From Patescibacteria group bacterium (GTDB lineage Bacteria; Patescibacteriota; Minisyncoccia; Phycocordibacterales; PALSA-1337): a stretch of DNA of 64,000 nucleotides. Below, piece by piece: positions 6,297-37,250 of the stretch. Numbering within the stretch: the first letter of the stretch is position 1; every line of letters starts with the position of its first letter. The notes below the pieces were generated by a model, which had not been told where the DNA came from, did not search any database, and saw only the letters and a program-made list of their open reading frames with translations. Location: positions 46,709 through 110,708 of the forward strand of contig JAZKJN010000006.1 in assembly GCA_040384285.1 (NCBI GenBank), written 5' to 3'. The translations under genes were made by a program, and so were the position numbers.

Positions 6297-7538
6297 GTGT
6301 ATAATTTATATCACATGGGATCAGAAATACATGCCTTAATGGATTTAGCTGTGGGGTTAATTACGGCGGCACTAGGAATTGGCATATATGTTCTAGCAAA
6401 AGAATCTAGATCCGCAAAATTATTCTCATTAATATGCTTTTCTGTTTCTATTTGGAGTCTATTTGTATCGATAAACACTTTCCCTTTATTTACAGAATCA
6501 ACGGCCTTTACATTTAAATTTAGTTATTTTCTTGCAGCAACCCTTGGAACACAATTTGTAATATTCTCAATACTATACCCTCGAGATCAGAAAGTGGGTT
6601 CTAGGATTGTTTATGGAGTAATTCTGATTGAAATTATTTTATTATATTTAATTTCTTTTACAGACTTGATAATCTCTCAACCAACCATCTCCTTGGAAGG
6701 TAATCATGTGGGTTGGGGGTATGGTCCGCTGTGGTTTATATTCGATGTTTATTTTTCTGGTTGTTGGCTCTATGGAATTTATAATTTATACAAAAAAATA
6801 GGACAGGATGAAGAAAAGTTTTCTCGAAGAAACCTGCAATTTATGTTACTCGCATTCATTGTAGGACTCATACCGCCTAGTATTACTGGAATTATATTGC
6901 CTCGAATCGGAATTTTTGAATACAATTGGTCAAATCCCCTTTCAAGTTTGCTTTGGATCTCCATCATCGCCTACTCGATCATACGCTACCATCTCTTTAG
7001 CATCAAATTGATCGCCATCCAACTGGTCACCTTCTCCTTCTGGATATTCATGCTCATTCGCATTTTCTTTGCCGCAAACCGACAGGAGCTTTTCATTGAA
7101 GTCGGTATCCTCTCCATTTCAGTGATTCTTGGTATCACTCTCATTAGAAGTGTTTTGCATGAGATCAAGCAGAGGGAGCGTATTGAAGGCCTGGTAAAGG
7201 ATCTCAAAGGTGCATATGCAAACGTCAAAGACCTCAATGATCATCTTGAGCAGAAAGTGGAGGCGCAGACACGAGAAGTACGTGCTTCATACGAAGTGGA
7301 AAAGAGAGCTCGGCAGGAGCTTTTGAAACTCAATGAGACGAAGAATCACTTCATCGGCATGGCACAGCATCAGCTTCGTACTCCGGTGACTGGTGTGAAG
7401 TGGCAGTTGGAGGCGATATTGGGGGATCTTTCTCGAAAAGATAATGAGGAAATACGAGAAGAACTCGAGGCGCTAGCTGGTTCAGTAAAAATACTCACAA
7501 CTACTATAAATAAAGTAACTGATATTGCTGAAGAATAA
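6297..7538 (+). CDS. Histidine-kinase-like protein lacking the catalytic ATPase domain (7TM N-terminal region plus HisKA only).
   Basis: 413 aa. The N-terminal membrane region is similar to that of the 2531..4129 kinase. The H-box is MAQHQLRTPVTGV. The ORF ends about 70 aa after the H-box and no HATPase_c motifs are present. Confidence 0.6.
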   Translation: MYNLYHMGSEIHALMDLAVGLITAALGIGIYVLAKESRSAKLFSLICFSVSIWSLFVSINTFPLFTESTAFTFKFSYFLAATLGTQFVIFSILYPRDQKVGSRIVYGVILIEIILLYLISFTDLIISQPTISLEGNHVGWGYGPLWFIFDVYFSGCWLYGIYNLYKKIGQDEEKFSRRNLQFMLLAFIVGLIPPSITGIILPRIGIFEYNWSNPLSSLLWISIIAYSIIRYHLFSIKLIAIQLVTFSFWIFMLIRIFFAANRQELFIEVGILSISVILGITLIRSVLHEIKQRERIEGLVKDLKGAYANVKDLNDHLEQKVEAQTREVRASYEVEKRARQELLKLNETKNHFIGMAQHQLRTPVTGVKWQLEAILGDLSRKDNEEIREELEALAGSVKILTTTINKVTDIAEE

Positions 7539-29358: not shown

Positions 29359-31035
29359 TTAACCCCTCGGCCCACACCCCAACAACACCCTCCCCAACCG
29401 TATATGTAAATACGAAACATTTGGCCCCACTTTGTTTTTGACCTTCGACAGGAGTACTTCATCATCTGTCTCAAGTATTTCATTGATCGCCTTCTCTATC
29501 TTCTTCCAATGAGCAAATGATATTTCTTTTTTAAGATATGCGATATCAGGTTCGACTCCTTCGGAGATGAGTTTTTCGATATGGGTAAGTATTGTCTCTG
29601 TTGTCACTCCTCGCTCGCTCGCCATGTCTTTGAGACTTTTTCGCTCCTCGATCAAAAGTGCAGTGAGCTCATGTGGTGCAAGTTTAAGTCCACTTCCCCC
29701 CTTGCTCTTTGGTACCGCCCATTCGAGAAAATCTTTTTGCTCTCCGTGAAGTTTTTCAGTATTTTTTAAAATTGTCTTACGCGCAACACTTGATTGTTCC
29801 TGGAGTTCTCGATCGAAAAGAAGAACATCTTCGTGAACCATAAGGGCAGTAGCGTTGAGACCGAGTATACTCAACCCTGCAAGCGACCTCACTCGCGACA
29901 AAGCCACATATCCCATCCCTGGCTCAAAAGCTTTTGAAAGATCCACCTCCACCGCATCCAAGCTCATCCCCTGGCTTTTGTGCACCGTGATCCCCCAGGC
30001 ATGACGAAGTGGGTACTGAGTGATCTCAGCTTTTACCTTGCCATCCTCCTCGATCTTCCATGAAGCAGGCTCGATGGTGATCTCGCGCCCTCCTGTCGTG
30101 CGTATGACGGGGTGTAAACTTTTCTTGCAGGAAACCACCATACCGAGCGTACCGTTTACATATCCTTCTTCAAAATTGTTCTTCACACACATCACCGCTG
30201 CACCAAGTTTCAATTTCAGTTTCTCTGGCGCAAGACATGACTTTTTTAAAATCTCAACAATAGGAAGATGACCTTTTGCAGACATCACATAGAGAGCCTC
30301 TTCGGGACTCTGGAGCTTTTCGAGCTCGAGTGCATTTAAAGCATCTACATCCATGTTGTGGGTAAAGAGTTTGGTAGCACGAACGCCCTTCTCTGGTGTC
30401 TTTCCCATCCGTGTCTCAAGTAGTTTTTTAGATGCATCACTCACATCCCCACTTCTGATTTCATTTAAAATATCTATCATCGAGTCATCTTTTTGGCGGA
30501 ACTGTTCGCTCAGATAGCAGACAGTAAAGTCTCCTTGTTTCCACGCCTCTCCGTGATATACAAACTGTGTCTCTTCACCCGATTCCGAAAAACCTCGCTG
30601 TACTGGAGGAAGCTGAAAGAAATCCCCCACAAGCACCACCTGCACACCACCAAAAGGGTCACTGGTACCTTTCATTGTTCGGAGCACCTGATCCACAAGA
30701 TCAAGTCGGAAATGATGGAGCATAGAGACCTCATCGATGATGAGCACTCTCACCTTTTCAAAACGTTTTGAAAGATATGGTTTCTCAGCCATGGCTTCGA
30801 GATCACTTTCATCCAAAGTATCCTTCACTCCAATCCCCGCCCAGGAATGTATGGTCATCCCTCCCATGTGCGTCGCAGCAATACCGGTCGAAGCAGTGAT
30901 CCCTGGATCAATATCGTTCTTTTTGAGATATGCAATGTAGGAATTGGTAAGATGCGTCTTGCCGCTTCCAGCAGGACCTGTCAAAAACACATTGCGACCA
31001 GTCTTTAAGATTTCTAGGGCTTCGAGTTGGGTCAT
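29359..31035 (-). CDS. PIF1/RecD-like SF1 ATP-dependent DNA helicase with a C-terminal HTH-like extension.
   Basis: Walker A VFLTGPAGSGKTHL. DExx-like LIIDEVSM. C-terminal pattern typical of Pif1 (AWGITVHKSQGMSLD). Confidence 0.75.
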   Translation of the reverse strand: MTQLEALEILKTGRNVFLTGPAGSGKTHLTNSYIAYLKKNDIDPGITASTGIAATHMGGMTIHSWAGIGVKDTLDESDLEAMAEKPYLSKRFEKVRVLIIDEVSMLHHFRLDLVDQVLRTMKGTSDPFGGVQVVLVGDFFQLPPVQRGFSESGEETQFVYHGEAWKQGDFTVCYLSEQFRQKDDSMIDILNEIRSGDVSDASKKLLETRMGKTPEKGVRATKLFTHNMDVDALNALELEKLQSPEEALYVMSAKGHLPIVEILKKSCLAPEKLKLKLGAAVMCVKNNFEEGYVNGTLGMVVSCKKSLHPVIRTTGGREITIEPASWKIEEDGKVKAEITQYPLRHAWGITVHKSQGMSLDAVEVDLSKAFEPGMGYVALSRVRSLAGLSILGLNATALMVHEDVLLFDRELQEQSSVARKTILKNTEKLHGEQKDFLEWAVPKSKGGSGLKLAPHELTALLIEERKSLKDMASERGVTTETILTHIEKLISEGVEPDIAYLKKEISFAHWKKIEKAINEILETDDEVLLSKVKNKVGPNVSYLHIRLGRVLLGCGPRG

Positions 31036-31441: not shown

Positions 31442-31924
31442 ATGGCAATAATGTTCCTACTCCTCAACGGTCCCAACCTCAATTTCTTGGGATTGAGAAA
31501 CACCAAAGTGTACGGGACCCTGACTCTAGAACAGATCGTCAGGGGACTCCAGAAAGACGCGGAATCTCTGGGATGCGAAATCTTTCCTCTTCAGTCCAAT
31601 CACGAAGGGGTTCTGATTGACAATATCCAGCAGGCAGCTAAAAATGGATTTGGTGGAATTATTTTCAACCCAGGAGGGTACACGCATACCAGTGTTGCTC
31701 TTCGCGATGCTGTAGAGATTGCTCGGGATCTCGGGGTGCCTACAGTGGAGATCCATATCACCGACATCACTCAGCGCGAGCCCTTTCGCCAAAAATCTTT
31801 TTTGAGTGAACAGCCCTCGGTGGTTGTAGACACGGTTATGGGCTATGGTCATATGGGATACGGTGTGGCACTCAGAAAGCTTATTGGTCATATCCTCGAG
31901 AATGCCCTACCCAAACAACCTTGA
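31442..31924 (+). CDS. aroQ: 3-dehydroquinate dehydratase, type II.
   Basis: LLNGPNLNFLGLR...HEG...IFNPGGYTHTSVALRDA. Confidence 0.85.
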   Translation: MAIMFLLLNGPNLNFLGLRNTKVYGTLTLEQIVRGLQKDAESLGCEIFPLQSNHEGVLIDNIQQAAKNGFGGIIFNPGGYTHTSVALRDAVEIARDLGVPTVEIHITDITQREPFRQKSFLSEQPSVVVDTVMGYGHMGYGVALRKLIGHILENALPKQP

Positions 31925-31934
31925 TTTCAAGTCT

Positions 31935-31973
31935 GCGCTGTTCTTGCTCTCCTCGGCAAGCACGGCTTTTTTA
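31935..31973 (+). terminator. Intrinsic terminator of aroQ.
   Basis: GC-rich hairpin gctg..cttgc-loop-gcaag..cacggc followed by a T6 tract. Confidence 0.5.
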
Positions 31974-32411
31974 TTACTATAATTTGTAAATAAAAAGACC
32001 CCTCGTTTGTACGAGGGGCTTCGGGGCACTGCGATGACTGTTTAGCCGATCTCGCAAAGATTGCGCGAGGCTACCTTTGGCGTGAGATAGATATTTGGAT
32101 AACCCGTTGATCACCGAATTTCTCCAATGGGTGGGTTTGTTATTGATGAAACCGAAGCCAGAGTCGCCTTTCGACTCCGTACCACTTTCCTGCCAGGATT
32201 TTCTAACCTGGCATATCTGTCACATCAAGCCCGCAGGCGTATCAGTGACAAGGTTTTTCTCATCCAGATAAATCTAGAAACGAAACCTCCCACAACCCCC
32301 AGATCCGCGAGAACCTAGGTTTAGGCTGTTCCCTTTTTAAGGGGGAATAATTATTCAGGAACCGCAATGCCACTGGCAAAGATATCAAACGCCTCCCGTA
32401 AAGTCAACAAT

Positions 32412-32445
32412 AAAAAAACAACCTCTGCCTGTCACGCAGAGGTTG
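32412..32445 (-). terminator. Intrinsic terminator of the MutS-like gene.
   Basis: Minus strand reads caacctctgc-gtgacag-gcagaggttg followed by a T7 tract. Confidence 0.55.
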
Positions 32446-32464
32446 GTAGAATTCAAACCTTCAT

Positions 32465-34486
32465 TCAGTTCTTCTGGAGGTTGAGGACTTTTTCCAAACC
32501 CATCTCCCGAGCAAGCTCATGGATGTCTGGCTCGCCGATACCTGAACTTATGGTATGAGCCATATCAACCTTGAAACATTTTGCACCAAGGCGATTTTGA
32601 GCATTTTCTGCAAGTGCCGGAATCTGAGTGTTGACCAGCACGGTACAACCGATCTGACGGAAACGCGCAAGTGTTGCCATGCCGAGCCGTTCACCCTGAC
32701 TTGCAGTAGTGCCAGTACCGGCTTCGTCCCAGAACACAAACGTACCGTTCATGGGATGGTTTGCAACCTCCGTTACCACGGCCCCAAGCTTTTCCAGAGA
32801 CAGCTGCATCGTCGAGCCGTCGCCATGCTCCAAATAAATGGAACCAATGACAGTCCGCAGATTCAGGCGCACATTTTTGCCAAACACGGGAAACCCACTG
32901 GCAGCATCGTGCAGAAGACCGAGGATTTCCTCCCCTGTCGTCGTCTTGCCTGCCCCATTTCCTCCTGTGAGCATTGAGATGCCCGCAGCAAGATTTCCGA
33001 GTGCAGTGATAGGACGCAAGTCTTTTGATTCGATAACCCGGCCCTTTGATCCGGAGGTCTTCCGGCCAATCAAGGCAACAGGCCAGAGAGCATCAAACGA
33101 TAACGTTGCCTGTTCCCCTTCCACAATTTCAGGAAAGGAAAGCGGTAATTGCCACCGCCGTGAACGCTCCACGAAGGTATTAGCAATCTTTGCAACATTG
33201 AGAAGCGTATACATGTGATCCGCAGCAAACTCACGGACGTCTTTCGATGCCTGGTAAGTTTCCGTCCATTTCTCCCGACAAACCGTTTCTCCATGAGACC
33301 ACTTGAATTGATCGTCAGAAGCTGGGGACGGGATAACCATTCCATTGCTTCCAAGGAGTTTTTCAAAGTTACCTGCGAACCATTGTTTGAGCCGGGGGTA
33401 GTAGTTAGTGAGCAGATGAGTGATGTACGAACGACGACGCAAGTTATGTTGCATTGTATCGATCTTTTCGAGATCGTCGGAGCGGTAATACCGGCTCCAC
33501 TTTTCGTCCATCGGTTTTGCCCACCTTTCTTCAAACTCGGGGGGAACTGTTTGCTGATCACTGAGTCCCACGAGTTTGATCTTGAGACCCTCCCCATTAT
33601 ACGAGAAGCGAATAACCAGATCCACAAACTCGCCGTCTTTTGATTCGTCAGGAAAAGGAAACAAGCTTTTTTCTTTTTTACCTTCCTCCCGAAGAATATC
33701 GTTCATGTAGTTGCAAATGTCTCGCAAGACCTCGTTCGGAAGCTCCGTCACGATGATCGGATTTGCCCACTTGCGGATCTCACGCCGGATACGGCTTTCT
33801 TCGCGCCGCCGGAGCAAGCTATAGATGCCAATTTTTTCGAAGAATTCATGTTCAAAGAATTCATGGATGGAGACCTTGTCCTTCGGTGGATTCAAGGCAT
33901 ACAATCGATGACCCACCACGTCTTTCGTCCAAGTGGCGAAATTCCACCGACCCTCCTCCTTACGTAACTGGAGGGTGACTGTACCGTCGAGGGTCGTTGC
34001 CTTCAACAATTGATCGACGACTGATTTGCCCATCGCTGCTTCGGAAGATTCCAGCCGCACCTGTTCAGTGCGAAGGTGCTCAGCCATCTGCGACAAGGCG
34101 GGGTTGCTGCGTGAAAAATCAGGAATCTGAGAGACAATCTCTTCAAATTGTTCTACCCTCGTCCAGAACTCATTCTGCTCGTGAGGGTTGAAGTAGTTCA
34201 CGAATTGCTGACCGTCTGCGGGAATCCGGACTGCCGAGCCCATGCGGGCAAAATGATCCATAAGCACGAACTCGCGCAAAGAATCATTTTCAACGAAGAG
34301 CCTAATCAGGTTTTGGCGACGAATCGCCTCTGCCCGATCAGCCGTAGCAAAGGATGAACGAAGTTCACTGTCTTTGATGCCGCGCAACGACAGATGCCGA
34401 TCACGGTTGAGCCCATCGTTGATCCAGAGGATCGGAGAAGCCTGAGAGTTCCACAAGGAAATCGAAGGCAGGGTCGAAGTGTTCAT
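32465..34486 (-). CDS. MutS-related ABC ATPase: MutS domain V only at the C-terminus, with a large uncharacterised N-terminal region.
   Basis: C-terminal MLTGGNGAGKTTT (MutS-type Walker A) and FVFWDEAGTGTTASQGERLGMA (MutS Walker B / DEx-GRGT-DG). No domain I-IV signatures or Smr domain are visible. GC is clearly higher than in neighbouring genes. Confidence 0.65.
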   Translation of the reverse strand: MNTSTLPSISLWNSQASPILWINDGLNRDRHLSLRGIKDSELRSSFATADRAEAIRRQNLIRLFVENDSLREFVLMDHFARMGSAVRIPADGQQFVNYFNPHEQNEFWTRVEQFEEIVSQIPDFSRSNPALSQMAEHLRTEQVRLESSEAAMGKSVVDQLLKATTLDGTVTLQLRKEEGRWNFATWTKDVVGHRLYALNPPKDKVSIHEFFEHEFFEKIGIYSLLRRREESRIRREIRKWANPIIVTELPNEVLRDICNYMNDILREEGKKEKSLFPFPDESKDGEFVDLVIRFSYNGEGLKIKLVGLSDQQTVPPEFEERWAKPMDEKWSRYYRSDDLEKIDTMQHNLRRRSYITHLLTNYYPRLKQWFAGNFEKLLGSNGMVIPSPASDDQFKWSHGETVCREKWTETYQASKDVREFAADHMYTLLNVAKIANTFVERSRRWQLPLSFPEIVEGEQATLSFDALWPVALIGRKTSGSKGRVIESKDLRPITALGNLAAGISMLTGGNGAGKTTTGEEILGLLHDAASGFPVFGKNVRLNLRTVIGSIYLEHGDGSTMQLSLEKLGAVVTEVANHPMNGTFVFWDEAGTGTTASQGERLGMATLARFRQIGCTVLVNTQIPALAENAQNRLGAKCFKVDMAHTISSGIGEPDIHELAREMGLEKVLNLQKN

Positions 34487-35644: not shown

Positions 35645-35677
35645 AGTAGAAGTAAGTATATCGTAAAGGGTTTATAT

Positions 35678-35717
35678 ATAAAAGAAAACTCCAGCGAGGC
35701 ACCATGCCTGGCTGGAG
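35678..35717 (-). terminator. Terminator-like hairpin with U-tract 35 nt upstream of dnaX.
   Basis: ctccagc-c-aggca-tgg-tgcct-c-gctggag followed on the minus strand by UUUUCUUUUAUAUAU. Confidence 0.45.
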
Positions 35718-35923
35718 TTGAAGTGTGCCCGCTCAGACTTGACGATGAGCAGGTGCTTCTCTTCTTGTTGTGGCCTTCTTCTTTTACTTACAGAGGACGA
35801 TCTTCATCAGTTAGTCCTTTTGCTAAAACTTCCAAGGAGAGGAGCATGAGAGGTCCAGTGATAACAAGGCAATCACTGACATGTCCGTAAATATAGTAAA
35901 GGATATTTATTTAAAAAGCAACG

Positions 35924-35964
35924 TAAAAGAAAAAGCGCCCGGCGGTATGTTGGCCGCCGGGCGC
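35924..35964 (-). terminator. Strong GC-rich intrinsic terminator.
   Basis: Perfect 11 bp stem gcgcccggcgg/ccgccgggcgc, followed on the minus strand by UUUUUCUUUU. Confidence 0.5.
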
Positions 35965-36272
35965 AAGCAAGTCTTCAGATGGTTACTTCTTCGTGTCCAC
36001 CTCCCCCCAGGTCGGATAGGTGGGCCGGGCCCGCCCAGGATCCTCGTGGCGCGCGCTGATGTTGAGGTGACTGTTGCCGGTTGTGGCTGATTGTCCAATC
36101 GCAAAGCAAAACGATGCTTCTTGCGGTGGACCCGATGACTGATGTTTACCTTTCATCTTCGGCCTTTCTTTTTTCCTGTCCGGAATCGTCCCGTCAGCAG
36201 TAGCGGGTAACCGGATGGATAAGTACAGGATACGATTATATTAAAATGTCGTCAAAAATTTTATCCCCAGCC

Positions 36273-37250
36273 CTACTTCCCCTCCTTCAAATACCTCTTC
36301 ACAATCACTTCCACCTCCCCCACATTGTTTGTCTCCATAAGTTCCACACGAAGTTCCTTTGCGCTATCCCATCCCGAAACAGACGCTTTAAAATGTTTTT
36401 TCATCAATGCAAAATTTTTCACATCTCCCAAAAGTTTGTCGAAAAGCTGTGCATGCTCGAGCATCACAGTGAGTCGCTCTGCCACAGGAAGTTCCTGTAC
36501 ATTTTTTCCACTAAAACACCACGGGTTTCCAAAAATTCCCCGTCCAATCATTGCTCCATCGCATCCACTTTCAGAAACTTTTTTACGTGCATCTTCAAGA
36601 TTCACAGCATCACCATTGCCAAGCAGGACTGTCTCGGGTGCAAGCTTGTCTCGCAGAGCCACGATCTCTTTCATATAGTCCCAGTGGGCTGGAACATCAG
36701 ACATTTCTTTTCGTGTACGCAAATGCACGGTGAGTGCTGCCACACCTTCTTCCAAAATTTGTGGGATCCAGGTTGCAATTTCAACTTTGTTGTACCCCAC
36801 ACGAGTCTTTACCGACACCGGCAAATTAGGCGCACCTTCTTTTGCTGCACGGATGACAGCACGCGCCACCTCTGGATTTTTCATCATCGCCGCCCCTGCG
36901 CCCTGCTTCTCCACTGACTTGTCCGGACACCCCATGTTGATATCGATACCATCAAAGCCGAGTTCTTGTGCCAGTGCTGCCGCTTCACGCATTTTTTCTG
37001 GATGTGCAGTGAAAAGTTGAGCAACGATAGGTCGTTCGCTTTCTGAAAATTCAAGATCTCTCAAAAGAGCCTTTTTGCCAGGAGAACAAAGTCCATCGGC
37101 CGAGACAAACTCTGTCCACGTCACGTCAGGTTTTCCATACTTTGCAATGAGACGCCGAAAAGCAGCATCTGTCACATTTGCCATAGGGGCAAGGACAAAC
37201 ATAGGCTTTTTAAGCTGTTTCCAAAAATTGACAGGATTTCCTTTTTTCAT
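36273..37250 (-). CDS. dus: tRNA-dihydrouridine synthase.
   Basis: FVLAPMANVTDAAFRRL...VDINMGCP... This is the Dus TIM-barrel with FMN-binding motifs. Confidence 0.85.
   Translation of the reverse strand: MKKGNPVNFWKQLKKPMFVLAPMANVTDAAFRRLIAKYGKPDVTWTEFVSADGLCSPGKKALLRDLEFSESERPIVAQLFTAHPEKMREAAALAQELGFDGIDINMGCPDKSVEKQGAGAAMMKNPEVARAVIRAAKEGAPNLPVSVKTRVGYNKVEIATWIPQILEEGVAALTVHLRTRKEMSDVPAHWDYMKEIVALRDKLAPETVLLGNGDAVNLEDARKKVSESGCDGAMIGRGIFGNPWCFSGKNVQELPVAERLTVMLEHAQLFDKLLGDVKNFALMKKHFKASVSGWDSAKELRVELMETNNVGEVEVIVKRYLKEGK

Follow-up and report, generated by a model that had tools for sequence, protein, structure and literature searches.

A candidate structured non-coding RNA encoded next to a MutS-like gene in Patescibacteria

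Predicted transcription unit

A 64,000-nucleotide (nt) stretch of contig JAZKJN010000006.1 from the metagenome-assembled genome of a Patescibacteria group bacterium (assembly GCA_040384285.1, positions 46,709 to 110,708), referred to here as the window, contains a gap of about 440 nt between the convergent genes aroQ and a MutS-like gene. Our analysis indicates that this gap probably holds the gene of a structured non-coding RNA, about 382 nt long, that would be transcribed independently from the minus strand, act in trans and lie outside the described RNA families, a reading to which we give a probability of roughly 0.7. The evidence comes from the signals that delimit the element, from its conservation in contig L002 (ENA ERZ650252), the only retrievable relative that carries it and whose MutS-like protein is 76% identical, and from the predicted fold of its minus strand. 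That the element is transcribed, where exactly the RNA starts and stops, that it acts in trans and what it does biochemically are all inferred from these data.

A promoter scan placed a sigma-70-type promoter on the minus strand at 32379..32407, consisting of a -35 hexamer TTGACT (32407-32402), a 17-nt spacer and an extended -10 element of the form TG-n-TATCTT (32387-32379), which reads TG-A-TATCTT in the window. The -35 hexamer starts directly after the U-run of the terminator of the upstream MutS-like gene, and transcription would start near 32373, about 6-7 nt past the -10. On the same strand, a terminator scan recovered an intrinsic terminator, presumably the RNA's own, at 31992..32019 (GCCCCUCG-UACAAA-CGAGGGGU followed by CUUUUU; fold z-score -4.15). 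Given the placement of these two signals, the predicted RNA of about 382 nt would extend from ~32373 to ~31992.

Within these limits lies a conserved core of 350 nt (32022..32371, minus strand), for which the RNAalifold consensus comprises 110 base pairs in 18 helices. The core is enclosed by a closing helix of 11 base pairs (bp), named P1, whose 5' strand (GGCAUUGCGGU, 32361..32371) begins 1-3 nt after the predicted start and pairs with a 3' strand (AUCGCAGUGCC, 32025..32035) located 5 nt upstream of the terminator hairpin; the changes found in P1 of L002 are C-G to U-A and U-G to U-A. The interior includes a central multi-branch domain of 163 nt with four hairpins (32129..32291, minus strand; 49 pairs in its covariance model), containing an invariant UGAUACGCCUGCGGGCUUGAUG internal loop and hairpin, and a GGAGUCG-AAAGG-CGACUCU hairpin.

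The original prediction, made from the sequence of the window, had described the gap as bracketed by the terminators of its two neighbours. Both of these are real. That of aroQ (31937..31972, plus strand; hairpin 31937-31966 plus U6, -14.6 kcal/mol, z -2.7) belongs to the neighbouring gene, lies outside the RNA and sets the downstream limit of the element. That of the MutS-like gene (32412..32445, minus strand; hairpin 32445-32419 with a 10-bp stem, and U7) sits just beyond the reported end of the gap at 32411 and abuts the RNA promoter. The count of two does not hold, since a third, strong terminator is present inside the span on the minus strand (32019-31998 plus U5), namely the one attributed above to the RNA itself.

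Conservation and coding potential

In L002 the element is found directly downstream of the MutS-like gene (blastn, 82% identity over 476 nt; nhmmer E 8e-94), with its core at 7092-7440 on the plus strand of that contig. Over the RNA core, 298 of 351 nucleotides are identical between the two genomes (84.9%), which exceeds the whole-gene nucleotide identity of all flanking genes (0.74 for the MutS-like gene, 0.62 for aroQ and 0.80 for dnaX). At four-fold degenerate sites of the same genes, identity is 0.48, 0.22 and 0.59, respectively; in the intergenic region upstream of dnaX, taken as a control, it amounts to 46%, versus 42% for shuffled sequence. The promoter block retains 24 of 36 positions, with both hexamers and the TG unchanged and the 17-nt spacer differing at about half its positions. 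The RNA terminator is identical at 22 of 32 positions (69%), L002 retaining the hairpin and a U7 run with a changed stem that includes one G-C to C-G swap, and immediately past it identity falls to 45%. The element is the most conserved DNA of its neighbourhood and its limits coincide with the promoter and the terminator; strong purifying selection on it is well supported by this comparison.

The selection does not appear to act on a protein. The indels that separate the two copies measure 1, 5, 1, 1 and 5 nt, none a multiple of 3, and the mismatches lack three-fold periodicity (21/16/16 over the three phases). Across the six frames of both strands there are 3-10 stops per sequence in each genome, and the longest run open in both spans 38 codons. 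Between 73 and 88% of the differing codons are nonsynonymous, depending on the frame, with no frame enriched in synonymous change. The open reading frames (ORFs) of L002 differ from those of the window in frame and extent, and a six-frame pseudo-protein query retrieved no match among 5.8 billion proteins. The earlier statement that the gap holds no credible ORF agrees with these results: the longest ORFs in 31900-32470 measure 63, 63, 58, 45 and 42 amino acids (aa), and a scan of four ORFs contained entirely within the element (63, 58, 45 and 42 aa) gave no Pfam match. The suggestion that the gap could be a degraded gene, made in the same place, is rejected: the lengths of the indels, the stop codons and the degree of conservation all contradict it. 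It is well supported that the element is under selection, non-coding and specified by the minus strand.

Secondary structure

Folded on its own, the minus-strand transcript reaches -149.4 kcal/mol, with a z-score of -3.9 and none of 100 shuffles folding equally well, versus a z-score of -2.6 for the plus strand; the L002 copy, also folded singly on the minus strand, gives z -3.3. When RNAalifold was compared with 200 column shuffles that keep the pattern of conservation, the z-score was -6.2 on the minus strand (0/200) and -2.3 on the plus strand. The consensus obtained from the pair of sequences contains 110-117 pairs, with 2-3 compensatory and 17-22 one-sided changes and 0 broken pairs, this last figure being partly circular in that RNAalifold picks a consensus that avoids broken pairs.

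In the 110-pair model, 19 pairs vary between the genomes and all of them stay paired, 17 through one-sided and 2 through compensatory changes; read on the plus strand, only 2 of the 19 would remain paired. The substitution rate is lower in paired columns (0.095) than in unpaired ones (0.262). The paired columns hold 21 transitions and 0 transversions, the zero again being partly circular for the same reason, versus 17 transitions and 15 transversions in the unpaired columns. Transferring the single-sequence minimum free energy structure of each copy to the other is a less biased test; for the minus strand it yields P = 0.16 and 0.0065, for the plus strand P = 0.77 and 0.52. A predicted fold compatible with both copies is plausible, and we regard the structural case as good, not statistically closed.

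Searches for known RNA families

At the Rfam gathering score, the 64-kb window yielded three transfer RNAs (tRNAs) only, and ARAGORN found the same three and no transfer-messenger RNA (tmRNA). A permissive search (Rfam 15, 4227 models, E<=10) was carried out on 671 nt around the element and on the L002 copy. No family was shared by the two copies, and the only matches were sub-threshold ones arising from terminators or chance, which differ between the copies: OmrA-B at 25 bits, RcsR1 at 17.8, DUF3800-VIII at 17.9 and SAM-III at 16.8. The SAM-III riboswitch match occurs in one copy only and was set aside as chance. Likewise, none of OLE, ROOL, GOLLD, raiA, HEARO, the group I and II introns or the riboswitches matched in both copies. 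The Rfam check proposed with the original prediction thus matched no family, and the element stays unassigned to any described one.

In the related Patescibacteria contig L005, Rfam model RF00162 detected an ordinary, canonical SAM-I riboswitch with 54.6 bits at 1309-1427, upstream of a gene for a pyridoxal phosphate enzyme of Cys/Met metabolism, indicating that Rfam models work on this lineage. The literature on non-coding RNAs of Patescibacteria, also known as CPR, on RNase P and on MutS2 was searched and nothing relevant was found.

Distribution

No second copy of the element is present inside the window (nhmmer and a covariance model of the central domain). This model scores the two known copies at 196.8 and 186.1 bits and detects nothing else in 168 kb of related loci. 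Homologues of the MutS-like protein with 49-58% identity occur in three distant lineages, at seven loci (L003-L009, L130), and no nearby copy was found there by blastn, nhmmer or the central-domain model in the 0.1-5 kb of flank searched, the flanking intergenic regions being short. At one of these loci, L008, a 420-nt gap upstream of the MutS-like homologue was considered and discarded, as it contains a tRNA and has no similarity to the RNA.

A third close lineage is represented by L134 and L135 (ENA ERZ28573531 and ERZ27315212), with a dnaX 88% identical to that of the window and 91% identical to that of L002; both contigs end just after dnaX, short of the position of the element. Blastn against phage and plasmid collections gave no match to the element, and pattern scans of viral contigs returned zero or chance matches only. 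A metagenome scan with the degenerate pattern GATACGCCNNNNGGCTTGATG listed at least 120 matches, and among those listed all were chance and none was real by nhmmer.

Interpretation and alternatives

The conservation, the promoter and terminator, the strand-specific fold and the lack of Rfam and ARAGORN matches all support the proposal, already made for this gap, of a structured RNA that is either divergent or novel. In the scheme we favour, transcription would begin at the extended -10 sigma-70 promoter directly after the MutS-like terminator, the 11-bp closing helix would arise by pairing of the first nucleotides with those at the end of the core, the interior would fold into about 17 further helices, including the 163-nt multi-branch domain, and the dedicated intrinsic terminator would release the transcript. 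Since several loops and junctions are invariant, and not the stems alone, the RNA would work through its fold. It could be a protein- or RNA-binding scaffold and possibly a catalyst akin to a ribozyme, an assignment of low certainty. We do not think that it is a short antisense regulator or a cis-acting leader. A leader does not fit: the next gene in the window, aroQ, is convergent, that of L002 is an unrelated gene of 308 aa absent from the window, and yet the element is conserved just as well.

The genomes of Patescibacteria are very small and streamlined, and these bacteria depend on hosts. A non-coding gene of 380 nt kept at 85% identity in such a genome, while neutral sites are nearly randomised, is unlikely to be dispensable. 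We see about even odds that the element is the first known member of a class of RNAs of 350-380 nt not described before and confined to a small lineage of Patescibacteria, under selection comparable to that on codon positions 1 and 2, serving as a ribonucleoprotein scaffold or ribozyme with a tertiary fold, and perhaps working together with the MutS2-like ATPase. Long, intricately folded bacterial RNAs without an assigned function are few, and historically such RNAs have proved to act as ribozymes, as riboswitch-like sensors or as the cores of ribonucleoprotein machines. Another class, if true, and one from a phylum that has been little studied, would lengthen that list and provide a concrete target for biochemistry. 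If tied to the MutS2-like ATPase, it could indicate that a quality-control or repair ATPase has a variant that depends on RNA.

Several points weigh against a novel RNA, besides the circularity and the only modest significance of the structure transfer mentioned above. The element is known in two copies only, that of the window and that of L002, and a control by shuffling that relies on pair counts is uninformative at a depth of two sequences (125/500). Relatives at about 70% dnaX identity have no element near dnaX, which is followed by other genes there, and the lineage that carries it is very narrow. Also, the GC enrichment put forward in the original prediction is marginal: GC content is slightly raised in the region (0.468) and in the RNA core (0.486) with respect to 436-nt windows (0.433 +/- 0.045), which places the region only at the 78th percentile of such windows, and several other gaps of the window are equally GC-rich. 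What makes the gap more than chance is its conservation and folding, not its GC content. The element is therefore best described as a good candidate resting on two sequences, and not yet as a discovery.

Among the other explanations, the one that survives best, while still rather unlikely, is that the RNA is coupled to the MutS2-like ATPase encoded upstream, either as the RNA partner of a ribonucleoprotein or as a product of the 3' untranslated region generated by read-through of the MutS-like terminator. The MutS-like gene (32465..34486, minus strand; 673 aa) is the upstream neighbour of the RNA and the sole gene whose adjacency to it is conserved; the two are co-oriented and identically spaced in both close genomes (2/2), despite differing surroundings. 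At their junction, the MutS-like terminator hairpin and the 8 nt upstream of it are identical at 41 of 43 positions (window 32412-32453, minus strand; L002 7012-7054), a better conservation than that of the RNA's own terminator. Terminator stems are ordinarily free to drift. The region possibly has a sequence-specific role, as part of an RNA precursor, as a protein site or as a promoter UP element, and this keeps a link between gene and RNA possible.

The protein itself comes from an orphan family: a search of 5.8 billion proteins returned only 7 relatives. It has no Pfam match at E<=0.01; its last ~170 residues weakly match MutS domain V, MutS2 and KamC ATPases, giving a C-terminal domain of MutS domain V/MutS2 type, and the N-terminal part of ~480 residues matches nothing. 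Among solved structures, those most closely related to the ATPase domain are MutS2 chains, of which 7qv3_v and 8qpp_W carry ribosome-style chain labels; we take these two to be ribosome-bound MutS2 structures, in which case an RNA-associated role would not be odd.

Against such a coupling, the window and L002 share a backbone of Peptidase_S11, Dus, dnaX, (...), MutS-like gene, RNA, (...) and a PIF1-type helicase. The conserved adjacency is accounted for by this inherited synteny and alone shows no functional module. The three more distant MutS-like lineages, with their seven loci, yielded no copy of the RNA in the short flanks searched. The RNA is also preceded by a conserved promoter of its own and set apart from the MutS-like gene by a strong terminator. 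The AlphaFold model obtained from the 7-sequence alignment is unusable (predicted local distance difference test score of 44), and no RNA-binding domain was recognised in the protein. A free-standing RNA gene remains the preferred reading.

Very unlikely, in our estimation, is an extremely divergent housekeeping RNA (RNase P RNA, tmRNA, 6S RNA or the large RNA of the signal recognition particle, SRP) missed by the models. The 350-nt core, the closing of its 5' and 3' ends in a helix followed by a terminator, and the purifying selection do resemble rnpB or ssrA genes, and neither Rfam nor ARAGORN locates any of these four RNAs elsewhere in the 64-kb window. However, no RNase P, tmRNA, SRP or 6S model matches either copy at E<=10, permissive filters included, the syntenic region of the relatives at ~70% identity is devoid of the element, and the signature motifs are far off, in agreement with their reported absence in the original prediction.

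In RNase P RNA, the P4 helix is formed by the universally conserved regions CR-I (GAGGAAAGUCCGG) and CR-V (ACAGAAnCCGGCUUA). In the element, CR-I needs at least 5 substitutions and CR-V has no match even at 5 on either strand, the only lookalike (AGGAAAGUGG) being ~190 nt from the 5' end and without a complementary partner. The models RF00010, RF00011, RF00373 and RF02357 have no match in the window at gathering score or in either copy at E<=10.

The marks of tmRNA are an acceptor stem with a G3-U70 pair, a T-arm, a CCA end and a tag reading frame. In a fuzzy search the T-arm needs 3-4 substitutions, and even 5 do not suffice to match the tmRNA 5' end; the closing helix has C-G or U-A instead of G-U as its third pair, and there is no CCA-type end, tRNA-like 3' end or tag frame. 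SRP RNA is marked by helix 8, with a conserved GGAA-capped motif, which needs at least 4 substitutions here, and its Rfam models RF00169 and RF01854 do not match. For 6S RNA, a rod of ~150-200 nt whose large central bubble imitates an open promoter, model RF00013 matches neither copy, and the branched fold predicted for the element is unlike such a rod.

Even less probable is that the gap is not an RNA gene at all and represents a conserved DNA-level element or a decaying remnant, such as a pseudogene, the end of a mobile element or a protein-binding region. The element does sit downstream of dnaX, where gene content varies between relatives. However, a pseudogene would drift to the ~46-48% identity of neutral sites and not hold 85%, and the signals are strand-specific, with changes mediated by G-U pairs tolerated on the minus strand only and the RNAalifold z-scores given above differing between strands. 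The placement of promoter and terminator suits a transcript. Further copies are lacking in the window and in the phage and plasmid collections, and a profile of the MutS-like protein found no relative in viral contigs. Finally, it is scarcely credible that the element encodes one or more small proteins, since the short ORFs that are present (63 aa on the plus strand, 32127-32318; 22 aa and 45 aa on the minus strand) are not kept in length or frame in L002, indels of 1 and 5 nt occur, nonsynonymous changes dominate every frame, the scanned ORFs lack Pfam matches and the six-frame search found no homologue.

Locus and neighbouring genes

On the 3' side of the RNA, the convergent neighbour in the window is aroQ (31442-31924, plus strand; Pfam DHquinase_II, E 7e-46). 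Its position relative to the MutS-like/RNA pair differs between the genomes, being downstream in the window and upstream in L002 (4295-4726). The two copies of aroQ are 65% identical, with the four-fold sites at 0.22, and the neighbouring genes are 76-90% identical; this suggests that aroQ was relocated or replaced, rather than simply inherited by vertical descent. Together with a sigma_r4 gene, the 308-aa gene and a 77-aa gene, aroQ makes up the differing surroundings of the pair, near which several small genes are restricted to one of the two genomes.

In both genomes a gene for a PIF1/RecD-like helicase with a C-terminal HTH_40 domain (29359-31035 in the window, minus strand) lies some 1 kb downstream of the RNA. 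The helicase has moderate matches to the PADLOC models RecD_like and PDC-S68 (E ~1e-16 to 1e-17), and no complete defence system was recognised. Upstream of dnaX, a second gap of ~600 nt (35672-36275; GC 0.487) contains no ORF longer than 111 aa and is not conserved in L002 (46% identity). At this position L002 places a gene of 130 aa, which has no tblastn match in the window, so that the gap may correspond to a decayed or replaced small gene.

In the distant lineages, the MutS-like gene adjoins a tRNA gene (L003 3487-4840; L008 1428-1501), and in L003 it also adjoins a gene for a Zn_ribbon_recom recombinase, which overlaps with that tRNA. This hints that integrative elements may carry the MutS-like gene or be located next to it. 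A search of genome contigs with the MutS-like protein returned only one distant match, in Bacteroidetes.

Comparison with known RNAs

The candidate resembles RNase P RNA (RF00010/RF00011) in its length, in the pairing of its ends in a closing helix followed by a terminator, in its branched interior and in the strong purifying selection to which it is subject, but differs in having no covariance-model match at E<=10 and no CR-I and CR-V that could form P4. With tmRNA (ssrA) it shares a similar length and paired ends, and it adjoins the gene of a MutS2 relative; MutS2 acts in ribosome rescue, as tmRNA does. In contrast to tmRNA, it is negative by ARAGORN and Rfam and has no T-arm, CCA-type end, tRNA-like 3' end or alanine-rich tag frame. 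Like 6S RNA and Ms1, it would be a stand-alone RNA gene of the abundant type that has a promoter and a terminator to itself and a closing stem, yet it is twice as long and is predicted to fold into many branches instead of a rod with a central bubble.

A riboswitch or other cis-regulatory leader would likewise be a structured element ending in an intrinsic terminator, and in L002 a same-strand gene follows ~120 nt downstream. Unlike such leaders, the candidate matches no riboswitch model, and in the window nothing on the same strand comes after it.

OLE, ROOL, GOLLD, the raiA motif and HEARO are large orphan classes of structured bacterial non-coding RNAs known from Rfam and the Breaker and Weinberg literature. 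The candidate differs from them in lacking a model match, in its size (at ~350-380 nt it is smaller than OLE, ROOL and GOLLD), in having been found in two genomes of one Patescibacteria lineage, and in the absence of a phage or mobile-element context. As in these classes, it is a long, ORF-free intergenic element conserved far above neutral expectation, with many predicted helices and invariant loops and junctions, and it would form a stand-alone transcription unit whose neighbours do not reveal its function.

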